Shown here piece by piece: positions 36,744 through 49,480 of a DNA stretch of 64,000 nucleotides. The translations under genes were made by a program, and so were the position numbers. Each line of letters starts with the position of its first letter. The first letter of the stretch is position 1. The notes under the pieces were generated by a model that saw only the letters and a list, made by a program, of their open reading frames with translations, searched no databases and was not told where the DNA came from. The DNA is from an uncultured Planctomycetota bacterium (lineage in GTDB: Bacteria > Planctomycetota > Planctomycetia > Isosphaerales > Isosphaeraceae): contig CAWJTV010000011.1 of assembly GCA_963845755.1 (NCBI GenBank), positions 800,001 through 864,000 on the forward strand, read 5' to 3'.

Positions 36744-38050
36744 TCAGACCTTCTTGATCGGGCTGGGCGTCCGATCGCCGAGGCCGAAGAGGTGGCGGAC
36801 GGCGTCGAAGAAGGAGTGGGGGTGGTCGTGGTGTGGCTCGGTCATGGCCGAGCGGACGGCCGCCCGCGGGTGGTGGAGGAACTGGTTCTGAAGGCGCATC
36901 ATCGTGTGAGCGATCGCCTCACGGTCGGCCTCGCTGAGGTCCGGCCGGGCGGCGAAGAGCTTGTTCAGCTCGCCGAGGCGGATCGAGTCGTAGCTGCTGC
37001 CCAGCTCCTGGAGGATGTGGCCGGCGTCGTGCTGGTGGCGGAGCAGGGCATAGCAAGTGGTCGTCTCGCGCTCGATGATCGCCAGCGCGGGGTCGATCCC
37101 CTTCTGCCGCTGGAGCCGGTTCTGTTCGGCCTGGGCGCGGAGGTCATCCACGTGATAGAGCATCACTTGATCAAGTTCACCGATCCGCGGGTCGAAGTCG
37201 CGAGGGATGGCGATGTCGAGGATCAGGGCCAGGCGATTCCGCCGCGCGCTGGACCCGCTGATATTGCTCGAGCGTGACCACCGGCTCGTTCGCCGCCGTG
37301 GTGCTGATGACCAGGTCGGCGTCGACCAGGGCCTGGCCCAGCCGCTCGAACGGCACGGCGCGGCCGCCCCAGCGCGCCGCGGCCGATTCGGCCTTCTCCG
37401 CGCTGCGGTTGGTCACCAGGATCGTCCCCGGGTTCAGGCCCTTGAGGTGCTGCAAGGTGGTCTCGCCCATCTTCCCCACGCCGATCACGAGCACCGTCTT
37501 ATCGGCGAACGAGTCGAAGACCTCGCGGGCCACGTTGACCGCGACGCTGGCGACCGACAGCTTCCCCTGGTCCATGCCGGTCTGGGCGCGGACCACCTTG
37601 CCGACCCGCAGCGCCGCCTGGAACACGTTGTGGAAGATCGGGCCGACCGTCTTGCACGCGTCGGCGGCCTTGTACGCGTCGCGCACCTGGCCGAGGATCT
37701 GCCCCTCGCCCAGGACCAGGCTCTCGAGGCTCGCCGCGACCCGGAAGACGTGGCCGACGACCCCCTCATCGTGGTAGCTGACCAGGTGCCCGGCGATGAC
37801 CTCCGCGGCGACCCGGTGGAACTGGACCAGGGCCTCCGTCAGGGCGTTCGACTTCGGGAACCTGCTCCGTGGCGCCGGCGAGGTAGACCTCGACCCGGTT
37901 GCACGTCGACAGGATCACGAGCTCGGTGCCGGGGAACGTTCGCGACAGCCGCTCCAGCCCGGCGGCGCACTGGGGACCGTCGAAGGCGAGCGCCTCGCGG
38001 ACCGAGGCCGGCGACGATCGGTGATCGACTCCCAGGGCCAGCAGTCTCAC
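36744..38050 (-). CDS. hemA: Glutamyl-tRNA reductase; frameshifts near 37850 and 37240
   Basis: LGVDHRSSPASVREALAF, LSTCNRVE (catalytic Cys), SLVLGEGQILGQV, VIGVGKMG, VTNRS and DIAIPRD. Confidence 0.95.
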
Positions 38051-38937
38051 GGCGGCGCCATCCTTCCGGCGGTCTTCGCCGTGCCATGGGCCGTGGGCAA
38101 TCGCAGGGCCTCGACCCCGACCCACGAGAACACCAGGAAACTGAAGGCCACGATCGTCAGGACCATCATGCTCCGGCCGCGCATCGCCGGCCGGAACCGC
38201 GCGTGCAGCAGCCCGGCGAAGACCACCCACATCACCAGCGCGCTCAAGACCTTCGGATCGGTCCAGCGGAGTACGTGCGGGTCGAGGGTCGCGGTGGCAT
38301 GGCCGTCGCCTCGCGTGGCGAGGCTCAACACCACGCCGATCAACAGCCCGAAGGTCAACAGGGGAAACGCCACCGTGATCGCGCCACGGTTGATCCGCTC
38401 CGATTGTTCGAGGCTCGGCAGCGCCAGCCCGGTGCGCGACGGCCGCTTGGCCTTGAGCCGCCGCATCTGCGCCAGGTACATCAGCCCGGCGAGGAACGCC
38501 ACGCAGGTAAACACCCCACCGCCCAGGAGGAAGATCCCGTGCACCGTTCCCCAGAAGCGGACGGTGCCTCCCCAGTCGACCCAGTCGGACTGCCGCGGCG
38601 CAAAACCGCCCGCGCCGACCACCAGGCCCAGCACCAGCGGAAGGACGAACATCCCCACGGCCACCGGTTTGGGCGAGCGGACCATCAGGTATAGCCCGAT
38701 CAGGGCCACGATCCAGGACAGCAGCATCAGCGAGCCGAACGCCGTCGCGACCGGCGCCATCGGGTCCTTCCGCGCCATGCTGGCCAGGAAGGCCGACTGG
38801 ACCAGCCAGCCCAGCGCCATCAACCCGGCCGCCACGTACCAGCGGATGGCGCTGCGGACGAAGAATCGCGCCAGCTCCGCCACCAGGGCCAGCGCATACG
38901 TCCCCGCGAAACAGAGGACCGACAAGCGATCGATCAC
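38047..38937 (-). CDS. Cytochrome c assembly (CcsA/HemX/YpjD-like) membrane protein
   Basis: Multiple TM helices; VHG, LPSLE..ER and WTDPKV motifs; translationally coupled to hemA. Confidence 0.8.
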   Translation of the reverse strand: MIDRLSVLCFAGTYALALVAELARFFVRSAIRWYVAAGLMALGWLVQSAFLASMARKDPMAPVATAFGSLMLLSWIVALIGLYLMVRSPKPVAVGMFVLPLVLGLVVGAGGFAPRQSDWVDWGGTVRFWGTVHGIFLLGGGVFTCVAFLAGLMYLAQMRRLKAKRPSRTGLALPSLEQSERINRGAITVAFPLLTFGLLIGVVLSLATRGDGHATATLDPHVLRWTDPKVLSALVMWVVFAGLLHARFRPAMRGRSMMVLTIVAFSFLVFSWVGVEALRLPTAHGTAKTAGRMAPP

Positions 38938-39073
38938 GCCGACACTCCCGGCATGCCTACCCCCTCCCGGGGCTTTCCTCCATCCTTCCCCGACCCGGTC
39001 CATTGTAAGCGGGCGCGGCGGGAAAACCCAGACCTCGATGGTGGTGGGCGGTGAGAACGGATCGGTACCGTCT

Positions 39074-40378
39074 TTACTCGCGCATTGCCCCGCGACCCTC
39101 GATCCGACCGAAGGCCGCGAGGCCGAGGCCGAAGGTTGCCAGCAGGGCGTAGAAACCCATCGACGGGGCGCCGAGCATGAAAGCGGGCGAGGCGGTGTGG
39201 AATGGCTTCCCGATCGCGGCCAGCTCCATCATCGTCTTCGGGGGAAGGCCGAAAATGACCAGGACGAGGACCAGGAGGACCGGGATCCGCGGCGACTTCG
39301 CGGCGGCGCGGGCGAGGACGGTGATCGGGATCAAAAGGAGAGGGATCGAATAGTCCCAGGTGACGGGCGAGACCAGGAGCATGGCCGTCACGGCCGAGCC
39401 GTAGGCGAGGTCGCGACCCGCCGGCGTCTTCGCCCGATGAGCGAGTACCACCACGACGGCCGTGACGACCAGGTCGGACACAAGTGTGCCGTAGCGGGCG
39501 ACGGCCGAGCTCGGCCAGAGCGGTGTGATCCGTCCCTGTTCACCGACCGGGTCGAACAGCTTGTACCAGAACCCGGATAGCGACAGGTTGAAGCCGTAGC
39601 TCCGGAACTTTTCCAGGGTGGGCAGGACGATTCGCACATAGTCGTCATAGGTCTCCCAGCCCAGGATGGCGATCGTCGCGAGGTTCAGGGCGGCGAAGGC
39701 CGCGCCGGCGGCGATCAGAGCGCGCCAGCGGCGCCGGGCGGCGAGGTAGATCGCGATGTAGGCGGGAAACAGCTTGATCGCGGCGGCCAGGCCGATCAAT
39801 GCCCCGGCGGCGGCGGGCCGGTCCGATCGGTCGAGTGCCCAGCTCGCCGTCACCAGGAACACCAGGACCATCGTGAGCTGACCCTGCTGGAAATTCCCGT
39901 AGACCGGTAGGCAGAGTGGCAGTAGGGCGGCGACGGGCAAGAACAGGGCCTTGAGCTCGGGCAGCGACGCGGCGACGATCGCCAGGCTTGCCAGGAAAGC
40001 GACCAGCGAGATCATGTTCCAGGCCAGCATCGCATCGGACAGATCGAGCCCTGCCAGGGGTAAGGCGAGCAGCACCGAGGTTGGCGGGTGGGCATTATAC
40101 GCGATGTCGCTCTCTTCGTCCGATTGCGGGCGTCCGAGATACAGGGGGATCGTTCTGGAATGGAGCGTATAAACGGGGAGTCCGCCCCGGTAGTTCTTGG
40201 CCGAGGCCCAATCCTGGAAAAAATCCGGCCTGGATTTCGTGGCAGGCCGAAGGATCCTGGCGTACGCCGGACCGAGCCCGACCCAGGCTCCGGCGGCCAG
40301 GACCAGACACAAGATGCTCGCCGTGCGCCAGAGCCCTGTGGCATCTTGCCCGAAACCCTGTGCCCCAGAACGGCCCAT
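39074..40378 (-). CDS. Glycosyltransferase family 87 (DUF2029) membrane protein
   Basis: DFFQDW, HPPT, GQL, AAAIKLFP and SPVTWDY motifs in a polytopic protein. Confidence 0.8.
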   Translation of the reverse strand: MGRSGAQGFGQDATGLWRTASILCLVLAAGAWVGLGPAYARILRPATKSRPDFFQDWASAKNYRGGLPVYTLHSRTIPLYLGRPQSDEESDIAYNAHPPTSVLLALPLAGLDLSDAMLAWNMISLVAFLASLAIVAASLPELKALFLPVAALLPLCLPVYGNFQQGQLTMVLVFLVTASWALDRSDRPAAAGALIGLAAAIKLFPAYIAIYLAARRRWRALIAAGAAFAALNLATIAILGWETYDDYVRIVLPTLEKFRSYGFNLSLSGFWYKLFDPVGEQGRITPLWPSSAVARYGTLVSDLVVTAVVVVLAHRAKTPAGRDLAYGSAVTAMLLVSPVTWDYSIPLLLIPITVLARAAAKSPRIPVLLVLVLVIFGLPPKTMMELAAIGKPFHTASPAFMLGAPSMGFYALLATFGLGLAAFGRIEGRGAMRE

Positions 40379-40486
40379 TGTACCGCCCCTTCGACCCCAC
40401 CACCGGCGCGGTCCGTCCGCGCACTCAACTCTAGGACATGGATGGCGATCCTGCCGTTCGTCCCGGGCGGCTCTGGGACGGGACCT

Positions 40487-41923
40487 TCAGGGACTCACCT
40501 CCAGCGACGTCTCCGCGCGGAGGAGACCGGCGAGCGGGCCGGAGTCGAATTCGACGGTGATCTTGGCCGTTCCTGGGGATTGCGACTGGGGCACTCGGAC
40601 CGAGGCCGGGCAGAAGGTGCCTCAGGCGAAGCCCGAGTGCGCGGTGGCGAGGGTCTGGTCGCCGGCCGTCTGGAGGGCGACCTGGGCGCCCAGGGTCTCC
40701 TGGAGGGCCGGCGAGGCCGGCGCACCGCGATAGCCGATGTTGATCAACAGCCCGTCGCCGGTGTAGAGCAACGGCTGCAAGTCCACGTCCTCGCCGGGCC
40801 TGGCACGCTTCGCCGGGTTGTCGGTCAAGTGGACCTCGAAGCTCGGCGTGCCGATCGGGTCGATCGCGACCGTGCCGTGTTTCTCGACCTTGTACCAGCG
40901 GGGCTCTCCCTTGGCTCCGTTGTCGGAGAAGATGAACGACCATCGCTGGCCGCCCCTGGGATCGTCGAGCGCGATCGTCACCGTGCCCAGGCGGTACTCG
41001 CCGACCGGGACCGTGGCCGGCTCGGTGCCGGAGAGGCCGTAAACCGAGCCATCGCGACCCAGGGCGGTGGCGTGCACCTCGACGGACTCGGCACTCTTGC
41101 TGGCCGCCCCTTTCCAGGCCAATCGCAGCGTGCCGACGCCCACCAGCTTTTCAATGGCGAGTCGGCTGCCCAGCTCGTCCGAGCGGACGACGTATCGCGC
41201 GCCGTCCAGGTTGAGAACCGTGGCGAAGAGGAACTGCTCGGCGGACGGGTCGAAGCGGCCGTCGGCGTTGAGGTCGATCCAGAGCCGGTCCTGGCCGTCG
41301 GACACCAGGCCGTTGCCGTCGCCATCGGCGCGGTGCGCGGCCAGATGGCGGACCGGGGAGTTCGTCGAGCCCGTGCCCGGATCGCCGAGCGCGACCGTCC
41401 CTTCGAGATAGCCGGCCGCGGCGTAGCCGAGCGTTCGGCCGCTCGCGCCGAGCCGGAATACCACGGCGCGGGGGATGGTCCGGGTGATCTCCTTGTCGAC
41501 CATCGCCACCTCGAGCGGCAATCGCCAGACGCGCTCGCGACGCGAGCCGGTCGCCGCGGGCGCGGGGGTGACGCGGTCGCGCTCGTCGATCCGCCGGTTG
41601 CGGTCGGAATCGACGTAGAGGTCGACCTCACCCGGCGCGACCTCGTCGAGCACGACGGTGGCCCGGATCGAGCCCGCGCTGCCGAATCGAATCTGGGCGT
41701 AACGACGGCGCGAGGAATCGCCGCGATAGCGGATCTTCTCGAACAGGTCCTCGGGCTTCTCGCGGCTCAGCACCAGCGCGCGGAACGGGGCGTGCTCGAA
41801 CGGATCGCCCGCCGCCGGGAGCACGAATCGCCAGGCCGGCGCGGTCGACGGTTTGTCGGAACCATCGCCGACCCCGGTCATTGCCAGTGCCAGCACGGTC
41901 AAAGGGACGAGATTCATGAGCAT
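40487..41923 (-). CDS. Secreted hypothetical protein; candidate selenoprotein (in-frame UGA at 40622-40624, 44 more codons to TGA at 40487)
   Basis: Signal peptide; DxDxN Ca-binding-like loops; ...HSGFA-UGA-GTFCPASVRVP...ITVEFDSGPLAG...LEVSP. Without readthrough the gene ends at 40622. Confidence 0.65.
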
Positions 41924-42046
41924 CGCCTTCTCTGTTGCTCAGAGGTTAATATCGTCATGGTCTCCTCACGAAACGAATCGGTCTCCGCCCGCTCCGCGAC
42001 GCGGTGGAACCGGCGCGAGGGCATTCGCGCCCGCACCAGCTCCATT

Positions 42047-45000
42047 TTACAGATACCGCTGATCCGGCGTCCAAAGAAACAAGAAATATTGATAGATAGA
42101 CCGCCATCGATCGGCGCCGTGGAGGGCCAGGACCTTGGCGACGGAGATCCGCGTCCGGTTCTTGGTCGCGTCGTGATCGGTGCCGGGCGCGGGGTCGTCG
42201 GGGAGGGCCTCGACCTGCTCGACGGCTCGCCGCGGGTTGACCAGGGCCAGCGCGGTCAGGATGTCCGGCGACACGTAGTCGGCGCCGAAGATCGCCTGGC
42301 GCGCCCCGGCCCGGTCCAACTCGGGCTCGAGCAACCGGGCGGCCAGGCCGCGATCGTAGCGGGCGACCATCATCGCGAGCACGGCGGTGGCCCTGGCCAG
42401 TTGAGGCTCATCGGCAGCGGTCTGATCGCCGCGGGCGCGGCGGAGCAAGACGGCGCGGCCGAGGAAGTCCGGCAGGCGGTCCGGTGCGACCTGCTCGACG
42501 ATCGGCAGCAGGCCAATCGCTACGGTCAAGGGGCTGGGCTGGCCGGTCTCGAGGTTCTGCGCGGCCAGGCGCTCCAGCTCGATGAATGCCTCGTCGAGCA
42601 GTCGGACCGCCGCCGACCGGTCCGTCGCGGCGACCGCCTGCGCCATCAGCCCGAAGGCATAGGGACGCAGGGGCAAAGCATCCGGCGAGATTCGCGATTC
42701 GGCGAGCCGACGGGCCCGGGCCAGGTCCTGGGGCGCCATCCTCGTGCAGACGGCGACGATCTCGCGATCCATGTCCGGCCGGAGGCTCGTGTGTTCCAGC
42801 AGGATTCGCTCGGCGACGGCCGGGGAGCGGGCCGCCAGTTTGTGGGCGATCCGGCCGTAGTGCTGCTCGAAGATCCGGCTGCGGTCGCCCGGCTCGGTCT
42901 TCCGGGCGTCCTGTCTCTGCTCCTCAACGATCTTCAGCGCGGCGGGCAAGTCGACCTGCGCCAGCGATACAGCGAGGTAAAGGGGGGCGTGCTCGGAGGC
43001 CTTGTCCCCCCTGGGGATATTCCTGGCCAGTTCCTGACCCTCGCGAAGCACGGCTCGGGCGCGTTCGACGTCTCCCAGGTCGATCAGGCGGTCGGCGATC
43101 TGGCCGGTCACGTTGAATCGGTGCAGCAAGGGAGTGACGGGCTTGCTATGCAAGATCGCCTGATCGAGGAACTGCGCGCTTGCGCTCGGGAGCCAGGTTC
43201 GGTATGACGTCCACGAGCCGGACGTATCCATAAGCCCGCGCGTTCGCGCTCGTAGCGGCCTCGATGATGGCGGTCGCATCGTCGAGGCTCTCACTAGCCA
43301 TGGCTTCCGCCAGCAGGGAGCGAATCTCGTCGACGGAGTCGGGATCGCCGAACTTGGCCTCATCGAGCCACTCCATCGTGGAGTGCGGATCGATGGCGGC
43401 CGCGTCTCTCAGGACCACGTATTTCTGTTCGTCGTCGCCGCGCTCGAGGACCTTCGCCGCCAGGGGCTCGATCAACCGGCGGGCCAGGGCTTGCTCCTCT
43501 TCGATTGGCAGGGCGGATGCGAGCGTCTGGTACGCGACGATGGGAGGCTCGCTGGTGCGCGCGAGCGTGACCTTCACGGGAAGAGGATCGCCGGAGCCGG
43601 GGCTCACGGAACATCCAACAGGCGCAGACCGATATCCCTCCGTTTCGACGAAGATCAGAGCCGGTCCTTCGAGGACGCCGGGGAGCTGGAATCGGCCATC
43701 TTCCGCGGTGAGGGTTTCGGTCGGAATCGGTCCATCTCCCGACTGTCGAATCCGGGCGCCGGCGAGCGGCTGGCCTTGGCGGTTGACGACCCGTCCTTCG
43801 ACGTTCCCCACGCGCCTCAGGGCCAGGACGGGGGGCTTGGTCGATCTCTCGCCCAGTGCGATGGCGGGCGACCGTGCCGTCAGCCGGCCGGGTGCAAATG
43901 CCTCGGCATAATAGGAGGCATTGGCCGCGAATCGCCGTCGCAAACGATAGCGCCCCGCGGCGTCGGTACGCAGCGCGCGCGAGCCGTCTTCGCCCGCGAT
44001 CGGGTCGATGAGGATCACGCGCCTGCTCTTGTCCTTGACCTCGCGCCAGATCCGGACCGACGCGCCGGCAATCGGCCGGCCGGCCGTATCGACAACCCGG
44101 CCAGCAACAGGCGTGGTGTGCTTCGGGTTGATGGTGAGCCTCATGGGCGCTCGGCCGTGGCCTGGGTCTGGATGGTCACCGCGGGCGTGCTGGCGAAGCC
44201 ATCCCACGCCGTGAGGCTCAGCTCGGCGATCGGATCGATGCCGTGGAGTGTGAAGTTGCCGGACCGGTCGGTGCGCGCCAGCGACGCCTGGGACCTTCCC
44301 TCTTCCGAACCCCAGATCGCCTCGACCTCGGCGCCGGCGACGGCCTTGCCGTCCTCGCCGACGACCACGCCCTGAACCTCCACGCCGCGCCGCAGCGCGA
44401 TCGGCGGCATCTCCAGCTCGGCGACCCCTCGCGGAGGCATACTCTGGGGGATCTCCGCCTGGTCGGCCGGCGTGAAGAAGGGAGCGGGGATCCGGATCGG
44501 CCACCCGAACGGCTGGTTCACTTCGCGGAGGATCCGACCGGCGAACCGGCCCGCGGCGTCCGCCATGGTGAATCGGTCGCCGCCGTAGTAGCTGTTCAGG
44601 ATCACCTTCGCGCCCACGATCGGCCGGTTCGTCCCCTTCTCGCGCAGCACTCCGCGGACATTCACCGTCTCGCGCAACGGGATCGCGATCTCGGTCGTCC
44701 GCCCGGCCTTCACGACGACGTGCTTCGGCGCCGGTCCGCGCAACGGAGGACTCCTGGCGGCGTCGAATTCCAGCGCAAGGTCGAGCGTCCCCGCGGCCAT
44801 GGCGGGGATCTCGAATCGTCCTTGGGGGTCGCAGACCACAATGGCCGACCCACGATGCCCGGAGCCGGCATAGCCGCCGACCTGGGTCGCGGCGCGGAGA
44901 GTCACACCTCGGATTGGCTCATTAGCTGGGGCGACCAATCGTCCCACGACCCGGCCGACCGGCGCCAGCGCGAGGTTGATGATTTGATCGGCGTCTTTGC

Positions 45001-45709
45001 GTTTGCTGATATCGGGAATCCGGAATCCCGAATCCGGAATCTCGAATTGGGAATCCGGAATCTCCAGCGTTTGTGTACCAAACCCAGCCGCCTCGACCCG
45101 GAACGAGCCGAGCGCCTCAGGCGACAACCCTGCAAGGGCGGCTCGACCGCTCGCATCGGTCGTGGACGCGAGAGTCTGTCCCAATGGCTCGGGGATGAGC
45201 ACGTCTGCGGCGCGAATGGGAATGACCCGGGCACCGGCCACGGGCTTGCCGTCGGGACCGAAGAGGCGGATCGGCGTTTGGCCGGGCGATCCGAGCTCGA
45301 GTCGGATGGGCGGATCGTCATGCAGGACGACTCGCGGCAGACGATGCGAGGCGACGCGTGTGCCCTCTCCAACGGTCACCGCCCAGACCGTCATCGGCGG
45401 CGGCGTCCGCCGCGCGACGACCTCGGCGGGGATTTCGAGTCCGAACCGGCCGGCGGCGTCGCTACGAGCGTGAACGAGGATCGGCGGCGCTCCCTCGCCC
45501 GGGTCGGTGAAGGACGCGTACCACATCTCTTCCCCGAACTGTCGCCCCTCATCGGCGCGGATCGCGTCGGCCAGCCAGATGTTGACATTCGCAGCCGGCC
45601 GGCCCGAGCCGTCGACGACGGTGCCCACGATCGCGACCGGCTTCGGGTCGGGCGAGGGAGACAGTTGGGCCAGGGCCAGGGTTGCCAGCACCACGGGTAC
45701 GAGTGCCAT
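42047..45709 (-). CDS. Large secreted protein with carboxypeptidase-regulatory-like (G.VVD..G.P..GA) repeats and helical C-terminus, paralog B; frameshifts near 44150 and 43160
   Basis: ORFs 44141..45709, 43146..44504 and 42047..43363 join; ends LWTPDQRYL. Confidence 0.8.
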
Positions 45710-45748: not shown

Positions 45749-48700
45749 CTACAAATAGCGCTGGTCGGGGGTCCAAAGACCCAGGAAGTATTGGTAGATA
45801 TACCGCCAGCGGTCGGCGCCGTGGAAGGCCAGGACCTTGGCGACGTAGATCCGCGCCTGGTACTTGTTGGCCATGGGGTCGGTGCCGGGGGCGGGGTCTT
45901 CCGGCAGGGCCTCGACCTGCTCGACCGCCCGTTTCGGGTCGATCACCGCCAGGGCCGCCAGGATCCGCCAGGTCACCAGGTCCGTGCCGAAGGCCGTCGC
46001 GTGGCTCCCGATCTTTCGCAGCTCGGGCTCGAGCAACCGGGCGGCCAGCGCGCGATCGTACCGCGCGATCAACATCGCCATCGCGGGCGTGTTGTACGCG
46101 TTGACGTTCCCTTCGCGACCGGTCGGGTCGCCCTGGGGCGGCCGCAGCGCCAGGGTGCGGGCCAGGTACTCCGCCAGCCGGTCCGGCTCGATCGCCTCGA
46201 CGATCGGCAGCAAGCCCCCGCCCTGGTCGGGAACGGGGTAAGTGGCCATTTCCCCGCTGGCGCTGACCTGGTCGAGGGCCGCGTAGGCCGCGTCGATCAG
46301 CTCGAGGGCTGCGGTCTTGTCGGTTGCGGCGATCGCCCGGGCCATCAGGCCCAAGGTATGCGGCCGATAGGCCAGCGCGCCGTGCGAGAGGCGGCGTCCG
46401 GCGATGCGGCGGGCGCGGGCCAGGTCCTTCGCAGCCATCCGGGAGCAGACCGCGGCGACGTACCGATCCGCGGTCTCGTTGATCGGGATCCGCTCCAGCA
46501 CGCGTTCGGCGTCGGCCGGCGATTGAGCCGCCAGCCTGTAGGCGATGGCGCCGAGGGCGCGTTTCGAAGAGAATACTGCGGTCGCTCTTGTCGTTCTTGC
46601 GCGTTGTGCGCGAGATCGTCGAGGAGCTTCAGTGCGGCCGGCAGGTCGAGCCGGGCCAACGCCTCGGCGACCAGGCCGAGGTTGTAACCGTTCTTATTGC
46701 CTTTGGGGGTATTCTGGCCGATCCCGAGCGCCTCGTCGATCACGGCCCGCGCCCGTTCGGTCTCGCCCAGGTCGAGCCAGCGTTCGGCGAGCTGGGCCTC
46801 GATCTGGAGCCGGTCCGTGGACGACTTCATCCCCCGCTCGTTCACGGCCGCTTGCGCGAGGAGTTCCCGGAGTCGGGCCGGCGGCAGGTCGCGCCGGAGC
46901 TCGCAGATCCCCACGTATCCCCAGGCACGGATATCGGCGGTACCGCTGGCCTCGAGCAAGTCCGTCGCCTCGTCGAGATTCTCGCGCGACAGGGCTTCGG
47001 CCAGGTTGACCCGGGCGACCGTGAGATAGTCGGGGTTGACGAACTTGAACGACTCCAGCCGTTCGAGCATGTCGAGCGGGTCGATCTCGGCCGTGTCCTG
47101 GAGAAGGCGCAGTTTCTCCAATTCCGTGCCACACTGGAGGAACGTCTCGACACAAGGTTGAATCAGCCGTCGCGCCAGGACGATCTCCTCTTCAACGGGC
47201 AGGGCCGGCGGGAGGGTGTGATACGCGATGGTAGGCGGTTCGTTCGTCCGCGCGAGCACGACCTGGACCGGTTGGGATCCGTGGTTGACCGGCCGGAAGT
47301 GGGTCCGGAACCCCTCTTTTTCCGCGAAGACCAGCGCAGGTCCCTCACAGACGCCGGAAAGCCGAAACCGGCCGTCCTGGGTACTGAGGGTTTCGGTCGG
47401 CAACGGGCCGTCGCCCGACTGGCGAATCCGGGCGCCGGCGATCGGCTGCCGCTGACGGTCGACGACCCGCCCTTCGACGGTCCCCACGCGACGGAGCACC
47501 AGGACGGAGGTCTTGGTAAATTGTTCGGCGAGGGCGATGGCAGGCGATCGCGCCGTGAGCTGGCCCGGCGCAGACGCCTCGGCGTAATAAGAGGCATGCG
47601 CCGGGAATCGTCGTCGCGAGCGGTAGCGGCCGTCGGCGTCGGTGTGCAGCGCGACGGAGCCATCACCGGCTGCGATCGGCTCGACGACGATCACGGCCCC
47701 GGCCTTGTTCCGGAGCTGGCGCCAGATCCGGACCGATGCGCCGGCGATCGGCTGGCCGGCCGGGTCGACGACCCGGCCGCCGACGGGGGTCGTGTGCTTC
47801 GGGCTGATGGTCAGGGTGACCGGTCGAGCGCCGGGCCGGACCGTGACCTCGGGCGTGCTGGCGAATCCGTCCCAGGCCGTGACGTGGAGATCGGCGAGCG
47901 GATCGACCCCGTGAAGTGTGAACATGCCTGCCTGGTTGGTCCGCCCCAGCGCCGACCAGGGCTGCTCCTCGGCACCGGTCCAGATCGCCTCGACCTCGGC
48001 GCCGGCGACCGGCTTGTTGTCTTCGCCGACGACGGTCCCCTGGACGTCGACGCCGCGCGCCAGCACGAGTGGTGTCAGGTCGAACTCGCGGACCTCGCGC
48101 AGCGGCATTCTCTGCTGCGGGAGGGTGATGTCGGCCGGCTCGAAGAAGGGTGCGGGAATCCGGACCGGCCAGCCGAATGGCTGGGTCATCTCGCGAACGA
48201 TCCGGGCGGTGAACGTTCCCTGGGCGTCGGTCACGGCGAAGTGATCGCCGCCCAATCGCCCATTCAAGACGACCTTCACGCCCGGAACCGGCCGGTTCGA
48301 CTCCCTCTCGCGCACCAGCCCTCGGAGCTTCACCGTCTCGCGGAGCGGGATTGTCATCTCGGTCGATTGTCCGGCCTTGGCGATGAGGTGCCTCGGCGCC
48401 TCGCCGCGCAGCGGCAGGCTCCTGGCGGGGTCGAATTGCAGCTCGAGTGTCAGTACGCCCGCAGCGATGGCGGGGATCTCGAACCGTCCCTGCGCATCAC
48501 ACGTCACGGTCGCCGACCCGCGATGCCCGGAGCCGGCATAGCCGCCGACGAGCGTCGACGCACGAACGGTTACGCCCGTGATTCGCTCATGGCCCGGCGC
48601 GACCAGTTTGCCCGCAATCCGGCCGACCGGAGCCAACCGGACATCGAGGGACGGAGGAACCTCGATCTCCTGTTCGCCGAACCCCTGCGCCTCGACGCGG

Positions 48701-49302
48701 ACGGCTCCCAGCACCTCGGGCGCCAGGCAGGCGATGACCGCCCGACCGTTAGCGTCGGTCGTGGTCTCGAGCGCGTAGGTCAATCGTTTGCGGATCGGCA
48801 GGTCTCCGGCGCGGATCGGAGTGACCCGGGCGCCGGCGACCGGTTTGCCGTCGGGGCTGAGGATGGTCAGATCGGTCCTGGCGGGCGCGCCGAACACGAT
48901 GCGGACCGGAGGATCATTTGCCAGCACGATGCGCGGCAGGCGCAGCCAACCGAGGCGTGCGTCCTTTCCGGCAGCCGCCGCCCAGATCGCCAGGGGCCGC
49001 GGCGACCGTTGCGCGACGGCGTCCGCCGGGACGAGGAACGTGAATCGGCCCGCGGCATCGGCCGAGATGTGGTCGGATACGGGCGTGCGCCCTTCGTTCG
49101 GCCGAGTGGTGGGCGACCACCACAATTCGATGCCGACCTGCCGGCCTTCCTCGGGGCTCATCGCCTCGGCCAGCCAGACGTCGGCAAACGCGACAGGAGA
49201 GCCCGACCGGTCAACCACGATCCCCGTGATCGGAACCGGCTTCGGGTCGGCCGAGGGGGGCAGTTGGACCAGAGCCAGGAAGACCAGGGTCGTGAGTGAC
49301 AT
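45749..49302 (-). CDS. Large secreted protein with carboxypeptidase-regulatory-like repeats, paralog A; frameshifts near 46550-46610
   Basis: AGGAG RBS then MSLTTLVFLALVQLPP; colinear with paralog B; ends LWTPDQRYL. Confidence 0.8.
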
Positions 49303-49480
49303 GCGAATTCTCCTACGGTTGCACTGACAAATGTCGAATCTCAGGGTAACGGCCGGAAGATACCGGGTCAAGGCGGGGTGGGCGGGCCGTTCCGCATGTC
49401 GGTGGACAGCCAAACGACGACCCGAGCCATATGGTAGTGTGGGTGAAACTACTAATATAACATAAAAACTTGTTAATATA

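Follow-up and report, generated by a model that had tools for sequence, protein, structure and literature searches.

A single gene in the window, the 64,000-nucleotide stretch of contig CAWJTV010000011.1 from an uncultured Isosphaeraceae bacterium that was analysed here, contains an apparent stop codon that is almost certainly read as selenocysteine (Sec), as judged by comparison with its homologs. Translated through this UGA, the gene would encode an exported protein of 478 residues with Sec at position 434 and a cysteine at position 438. It appears to represent a real and new selenoprotein family, large, uncatalogued, exported and all-beta, which is carried by Isosphaeraceae-type bacteria and marked by an invariant U-x3-C pair. 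We regard it as very probable that this is one gene for an exported selenoprotein, and that the recoding, the protein and its upstream partner are as proposed below.

A first-pass annotation, made from the letters of the window, had described an open reading frame (ORF) of 433 amino acids (aa) that ends with SGFA-TGA, and had claimed that the frame continues for 44 protein-like codons. The ORF was confirmed on the minus strand at 40622..41923, with AHSGFA as its last residues. Past the first TGA the frame runs for 44 codons, GTFCPASVRVPQSQSPGTAKITVEFDSGPLAGLLRAETSLEVSP, until a second TGA at 40489..40487, and the RNA letters 3' of the UGA agree with the earlier reading. The features of the gene are as follows.

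40490..41923, minus strand: predicted selenoprotein coding sequence, 478 codons including Sec434; from the translation, an alignment of 20 homologs and an AlphaFold2 model (predicted local distance difference test (pLDDT) 90.9, predicted template modelling score (pTM) 0.82, all-beta)
41923..40625 (with the stop, 40622), minus strand: ORF as called publicly, codons 1-433; public calls end at codon 433
41867..41923, minus strand: probable signal peptide, residues 1-19, MLMNLVPLTVLALAMTGVG; from the sequence and the N-termini of homologs
40622..40624, minus strand: UGA, codon 434, almost certainly read as Sec; TGA in 43/43 homologs, Cys in P0159, P0180 and P0228, contigs of four public runs
40610..40612, minus strand: Cys438 codon UGC, the Sec partner in the U-G-T-F-C motif; invariant in 44/44 aligned C-terminal domains
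40590..40607, minus strand: hairpin resembling a selenocysteine insertion sequence (SECIS), nucleotides (nt) 18-35 with the U of UGA as 1, GGCCUC / loop GGUCC / GAG-U-GCC; from RNA folds and silent-site constraint
40490..40621, minus strand: 44 codons after Sec, predicted to form the three final strands of the macroglobulin-like beta-sandwich at the C-terminus; from the AlphaFold2 model, the proportions of nonsynonymous and synonymous differences (pN/pS) and the codon columns
40487..40489, minus strand: true stop, also TGA; from the translation and the final stops of homologs

Conservation of the UGA and translation of the tail

The read-through protein (P0001) was used as the query in a six-frame search of 121 genomes of the same taxonomic family, which generated matches in 34/121 genomes and 16/53 genera. 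By our count at least one TGA is present in all match rows that span residue 434 (46/46), and rows that miss this residue have no internal TGA. Twenty loci were excised, and in 20/20 a TGA falls at one identical column. The motif around it is (A/C)HSGF(A/S/R)-U-G(T/G)(F/I)C-x-ASVRVP, followed by 41-57 conserved codons. The final stop of the 20 homologs is TGA in 15, TAG in 3 and TAA in 2.

A wider sample of 400 further genomes of the phylum produced seven more with a match. Three of these, from three other families, have a match that reaches the site, and each has TGA at the Sec column (SGFA-U-GTFC, SGFM-U-GTFC and SGFT-U-STLC; 32-46% identity to the window's protein over the best tblastn segment). 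The remaining four matches are weak and partial and end before the Sec site. When 20 second copies and further homologs, all from other genomes, are added to these loci, TGA occupies the Sec column in 43/43 genomic homologs, down to ∼32% identity and across four families of the phylum.

Homologs with a sense codon at the site were found by a profile search of 1.84 billion representatives, which yielded 694 proteins at E<=0.001, 256 of them at E<=1e-30. Among the best 150 of the 694, three metagenomic proteins (P0159, P0180 and P0228) have Cys at the Sec column and a normal C-terminus, with the site sequences SSFA-C-GTFC, TSFG-C-GCLC and SHYA-C-GALC. The tBLASTn-type comparison that the first-pass annotation had proposed thus came out in its favour, with homologs conserved on both sides of the site, TGA in 43/43 genomic sequences and Cys in the 3 metagenomic ones. 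The U-x3-C pair that it had pointed out is likewise upheld, as U434 (Cys in 3 rows) and C438 are invariant in 44/44 aligned C-terminal domains. The other invariant residues of these 44 domains are two Gly-Leu positions, one Pro and two Gly, while a His five residues upstream of Sec is common and not invariant.

Of 269 database homologs that were realigned, the 433-aa call from the window among them, 223 terminate precisely at the Sec site, mostly with SGFA or SGFS as the last residues. Three read through with Cys, and the remaining 43 are fragments or end elsewhere. Counted in this way the family would be nearly Sec-obligate, with 223 Sec forms and 3 Cys forms among the homologs in hand. A word-index search gave a query coverage of at most 91% for all 120 matches listed, and those with a named source are annotated as 'hypothetical protein', so gene callers and selenoproteome surveys miss the family. 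The sources among the matches listed are Isosphaeraceae, Isosphaerales, Aquisphaera giovannonii and Aquisphaera insulae. The two Aquisphaera species are cultured carriers of the gene (P0093 in A. giovannonii; P0108, L074 and L084 in A. insulae); the family carriers come from soil metagenomes.

The first-pass annotation had cautioned that the TGA could be a miscalled TGC or TGG and had recommended that it be re-checked. In public soil runs, every contig piece that covers 40622-40624 keeps the TGA bases, in four runs, one of which may be the source sample and is then not independent. No public run was found with half or more of the stretch's sampled words, the best share being 0.20. The caution is refuted by the contigs of the four runs together with the TGA of the homologs; because that TGA is shared by 43/43 genomic homologs, a sequencing error is excluded.

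The tail behaves like the rest of the gene. Over codons 447-476 of the 20 aligned genes pS is 0.528 and pN 0.265, a pN/pS of 0.50 compared with 0.35-0.59 in the rest of the gene. The invariant Gly and Pro columns of the tail each use three or four synonymous codons. Its strands in the AlphaFold2 model are residues 440-443, 451-460 and 467-476, with a block-mean pLDDT of 92-98. The tail evidently evolves as coding sequence and is, to judge from its codons, translated.

The selenoprotein gene occurs at two separate loci in several genomes (G001, G087, G062, G043, G029, G046, G013 and G027), the copies being 49-59% identical to the window's protein, so the family has undergone expansion inside single genomes. 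One extra copy (L056, G010:C20:403619-404419) is degraded, with a second TGA and frame breaks, and another (L049, G002:C24:93222-94122) has a tail that turns Pro/Ser-rich after ASVRVP. Both keep TGA at the Sec column, and both may be decaying paralogs.

The soil metatranscriptome run X20 contains a 151-nt contig with a 62-nt core identical to the UGA/SECIS region (40581-40642) and with unlike flanks. It presumably comes from a relative and represents that organism's version of the stretch under strongest constraint. As a record of transcription of the window's gene it was rejected, since the flanks of the conserved core are unlike.

The SECIS-like hairpin and the selenocysteine machinery

In the hairpin, G18-G19-C20-C21-U22-C23 pairs with G29-A30-G31 and G33-C34-C35, U32 is bulged, and the loop N24-G25-U26-N27-C28 holds G25-U26 at its apex (window positions 40600 and 40599). 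Nucleotides 18-35 were recovered as a hairpin independently by RNAalifold, and 94.6% of the alignment cells are paired. The first-pass annotation had drawn an upper stem CUCG/CGAG with a G-U at the apex, and this is present. Its lower stem, GGCA/UGCC (nt 4-7/32-35), stands less firmly. It fits the alignment, with 94% of cells paired and failure of pair 6-33 in 7/42, and an alternative GGC/GCC (nt 18-20 with 33-35) fits too. RNAalifold returns the alternative, which we favour because G18 is invariant.

Silent-site behaviour supports a constraint on the hairpin that would act at the level of the RNA. The mean third-base entropy of the seven invariant degenerate columns of codons 435-446 is 0.43 bit, compared with 1.15 bit for 47 columns of this kind elsewhere. 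Ala440 GCC, Arg443 CGA and Val444 GUG are fixed in 20/20 genes, and no column elsewhere has zero entropy. The codon CGA at Arg443 is used by 40/42 distinct sequences, though it makes up 13% of the Arg codons in these genes. G18, a codon third base, is G in 42/42 although its codon may stand for any of P, A, T, Q, S, M and L. The hairpin codons have a pS of 0.238, less than half of the 0.49-0.53 found elsewhere, and Val442, in the loop, is the only silent site within the hairpin that varies freely. The full set of seven pairs is possible in 23/34 distinct sequences and six in 8 more, while 0-3.7% of synonymous recodings form all seven, these shares being taken over kin sequences and not probabilities. 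In the loop, the third-codon positions nt 24 and 27 (window 40601 and 40598) covary, G with C or U in 30/31 and C with G in 11/11. They are too close for a normal base pair.

The minimal SECIS of E. coli fdhF begins 11 nt after the UGA and exposes G23-U24. Genes of this type share with the window's gene an in-frame UGA followed by a short intragenic hairpin with an apical-loop G-U and one bulged U, in a genome with selA, selB, selC and selD. The window's hairpin differs in that it has a pentaloop N-G-U-N-C and not GGUC, its bulged U is on the 3' side, and its G-U is at 25-26 and not 23-24. Its stem is unrelated in sequence, and Rfam has no model that matches it.

The first-pass annotation had made the case depend in part on selA, selB, selC and selD in the genome. 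The window's genome, 14.27 Mb in 49 contigs and 88% complete, contains SelA (406 bits), selB (298 bits) and selD (376 bits), along with a tRNA-Sec (78 bits) whose anticodon ARAGORN reads as tca. Across the family, SelA was detected at E<=1e-30 in 31/34 genomes with a match to the gene and in 55/87 genomes without one.

Fold of the protein and its upstream partner

The AlphaFold2 model was built on a 69-row alignment and has the scores given above, with pLDDT <50 at residues 1-11. After the signal peptide the protein is modelled as four beta-sandwich domains, and its middle part has acidic loops that resemble DxDxDG. Whole-protein Foldseek returned generic multi-domain Ig-like chains with a template modelling score (TM) of ∼0.15, and the last domain was therefore folded separately (last 125 residues, pLDDT 87.8). 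U434 and C438 flank a short turn between a strand that ends at 433 and strand 440-443. The model agrees with the earlier claim that the 44 codons supply the remaining strands of a beta-sandwich, and the fold searches agree with that of a non-thioredoxin fold, the best matches being macroglobulin (MG) domains and Ig-like sandwiches. Thioredoxin-fold selenoproteins have UxxC or CxxU at the N-terminus of a helix, whereas here the model is all-beta and the U-x3-C lies on a beta turn.

The C-terminal domain shares its fold with the MG domains of alpha-2-macroglobulin (A2M) and of C3/C4/C5. It matches an MG domain of Salmonella A2M (Z 10.7, root-mean-square deviation 2.7 over 99 residues), C3 (Z 10.0) and human A2M MG2 (Z 9.9), at 14-21% identity in these three. 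Foldseek gave a TM of 0.62/0.74 to 2p9r (human A2M MG2). Many unrelated Ig-like domains score Z 8-9, so the MG match names the fold and not the function. The full A2M architecture, with thioester domain and bait region, is not seen in this 478-residue protein, and Pfam gives neither an A2M nor a thioester family at E<=1. We know of no selenocysteine in A2M or complement proteins.

Domain libraries gave little for the family. With P0001 Pfam produced only a sub-threshold GEVED match (19.1 bits, cut-off 24.4) on the acidic loop region. The Cys homolog P0159 gave MG2 at 24.7 bits (cut-off 32.8) and GEVED, also sub-threshold. NCBIfam 20.0 had no match to P0001 at E<=1, and none to the truncated call P0002 or to P0159 at E<=0.01.

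The gene immediately upstream is present in two tandem copies on the same strand, as follows.

42047..45709, minus strand: partner gene, proximal copy, split over three overlapping frames; encodes a signal peptide, repeats of the CarboxypepD_reg type and a helical domain at the C-terminus
44141..45709, 43146..44504 and 42047..43363, minus strand: frames of the proximal copy
45749..49413, minus strand: partner gene, distal tandem copy, two frames (46345..49413 and 45749..46501)

The helical-part ORF at 42047..43363, which has no Pfam family, adjoins the selenoprotein gene in 22/22 other loci (E 6e-121 to 5e-13). Longer stretches, taken from seven genomes, show it to be the helical C-terminal end of a single long gene. 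A single open frame of 1189-1248 aa encodes this partner in 4/7 of the longer loci (L060, L064, L059 and L063), and a fifth has a 697-aa frame. By its synteny, the conserved unit is a long, predicted secreted repeat protein followed by the selenoprotein, which agrees with the first-pass annotation's placing of the gene at the end of an operon of large secreted proteins. The split copies in the window are probably due to indel errors in the assembly; that they are pseudogenes is less likely.

The same 438-aa upstream ORF was considered as a paralog of the selenoprotein and rejected, as the two have no similarity and the ORF is the helical C-terminal domain of the ∼1200-aa gene. A search of Atlas gave it only TPR-like leads (0.88-0.94). 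A sigma-70-like promoter match (9/12) lies at 42044-42073 on the minus strand, where the upstream gene ends, ∼120 nt ahead of the start codon of the selenoprotein gene. The stretch 40300-42150 has no terminator-like site. Downstream on the same strand are a GT87-family glycosyltransferase gene (39074-40378) and a gene for a cytochrome c assembly (CcsA-like) protein (38047-39003), neither of which is kept beside the selenoprotein gene elsewhere. The GT87 gene was rejected as a partner, with one weak match in 22 loci and no conservation.

Proposed mechanism, rival explanations and meaning

If the gene follows the established bacterial pathway, its UGA (codon 434) would be decoded by Sec-tRNA(Sec), which SelB would bring after docking on the hairpin 18-35 nt downstream, with G25-U26 in its loop. 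Translation would continue for 44 codons and stop at the second UGA, which has no such signal. Failed recoding would leave a product without the three strands of the last domain. Most likely, Sec434 and Cys438 would serve as a selenol/thiol (selenenyl-sulfide) centre with redox activity, located in the periplasm or at the cell surface. The selenoprotein would probably work jointly with the secreted ∼1200-aa protein of CarboxypepD_reg repeats, whose gene directly precedes its own in all genomes examined. That U434 and C438 may be a redox pair working in concert with the upstream protein is put forward tentatively, as a reading that has a reasonable chance of being right.

The same recoding could serve another chemistry. 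The main alternative for the role, which we consider possible though rather unlikely, is that U434 and C438 bind a soft metal or metalloid (Cu(I), Hg(II), Cd or As) as a pair of ligands, for capture or sensing at the surface. They are the only two invariant ligand-type residues, they sit on a turn of a non-enzymatic beta-sandwich, and the common but not invariant His is five residues upstream of Sec. Several catalogued bacterial selenoproteins bind metal according to the available part of Table 1 of PMC13188914, and the carriers come from soil metagenomes. Set against this, no metal-resistance or transport gene is conserved beside the selenoprotein gene, no metal-binding family of Pfam or NCBIfam matches, and the data do not separate a metal site from a redox pair. 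A further idea, improbable in our view, is that Sec on an Ig/macroglobulin-like scaffold is a selenium-based capture or covalent-attachment module in a surface complex with the 1200-aa protein, and not a classical oxidoreductase.

Several observations weigh against a Sec-decoded, exported redox protein. The modelled fold is unlike any known oxidoreductase, which leaves the invariant U/C pair as the sole pointer to a redox role. Export is predicted from the N-terminal sequence only. The alignment shows no covariation in the stem; the stem is nearly invariant, so this counts neither for nor against the hairpin. Its fold energy is unexceptional compared with dinucleotide shuffles (z -0.67) and with synonymous recodings (mean z -0.38; 1/42 at or below the 5% level). 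Such energy is ordinary for G+C-rich coding sequence of this kind and gives the hairpin no support. Rfam has no SECIS family match, and its sole match is a chance one to CRISPR-DR28 (E 8.3). Part of the nucleotide conservation could stem from the highly conserved peptide GTFCxASVRVP. The selB of the window's genome (L024, G000:C29:294303-297989) is in three pieces in three frames. G001 and G036 have this gene as one uninterrupted frame, and the same-genus G046 has it in two pieces; the frame breaks are read as assembly errors because other long genes of the assembly are also frameshifted. Finally, SelA was not detected in 3/34 family genomes with the gene, which are 73%, 79% and 83% complete.

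The hairpin and SelA results could also be cited for a UGA read through without Sec, with a near-cognate tRNA inserting Trp, Cys or Arg and a hairpin, lacking covariation, unusual stability and an Rfam SECIS match, that only slows termination. We judge this very unlikely. The full Sec machinery is present, the three genomes in which SelA is undetected are incomplete, and the apical G-U lies at about the fdhF distance. The read-through homologs have Cys in 3/3, not Trp or Arg.

A genuine stop after a complete 433-aa protein, with a small ORF downstream (e.g. from the GUG codon 444) or an RNA element, is highly improbable. All public gene calls do end there, and GUG at codon 444 is invariant in 20/20. 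The Cys homologs, however, are continuous through the site, and the peptide between the TGA and GUG444 is conserved, with synonymous change at Val442. The tail also supplies three strands of one modelled domain at high block-mean pLDDT, and the frame is kept in 43/43 homologs. The last possibility, that a TGC or TGG was turned into TGA by a fault of assembly or sequencing or that every TGA is sense in this organism, can draw on the frameshifts in other genes of the assembly and is negligible, given the same TGA in homologs from independent genomes and in the public contigs, and given that TGA ends this gene itself and 15/20 homologs.

Comparison with the catalogued families supports the novelty of the Sec protein proposed here. 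A 2026 review of the prokaryotic selenoproteome counts 119 families (PMC13188914), and in the part of its Table 1 that was available no macroglobulin-like or comparable all-beta exported family was found. The string 'UxxxC' is absent from that review, although TsoA (LULAxC) has the same spacing, with U and C four residues apart. A DUF1573 protein (UGC), a TonB-dependent receptor (FCYxU) and TsoA are described there, as far as the available text goes, as predicted selenoproteins outside the cytoplasm or the thioredoxin fold, and were found by the same logic of Sec/Cys pairs and truncation. Pfam and NCBIfam scans show no sequence relation of these three to the planctomycete family. DUF1573 is a beta-sandwich.

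The nine new deep-Sep families are, in the accessible part of their source, proteins other than this one. The word Planctomycet is absent from the main text of the BSepDB paper; the genome list of that paper has both Aquisphaera species. Other planctomycetes have fdhA and fmdB selenoproteins, and Isosphaera pallida has a full Sec gene set, according to the portion of PMC4807772 at hand. Full-text searches of the literature on selenoproteins of Planctomycetes or Isosphaeraceae, or with macroglobulin, returned nothing on this family.

Two cultured strains, Aquisphaera giovannonii and A. insulae, have the gene, so the prediction is directly testable. The finding adds a well-supported family to the ∼119 catalogued in prokaryotes, and the phylum is one in which exported selenoproteins mostly lack annotation. 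With a fold other than that of thioredoxin and with Cys hardly ever in place of Sec, the family may exemplify a role for selenium that is beyond the reach of cysteine. If Sec does serve as a capture or attachment module, the envelope biology of large-genome soil Isosphaeraceae would depend on selenium.

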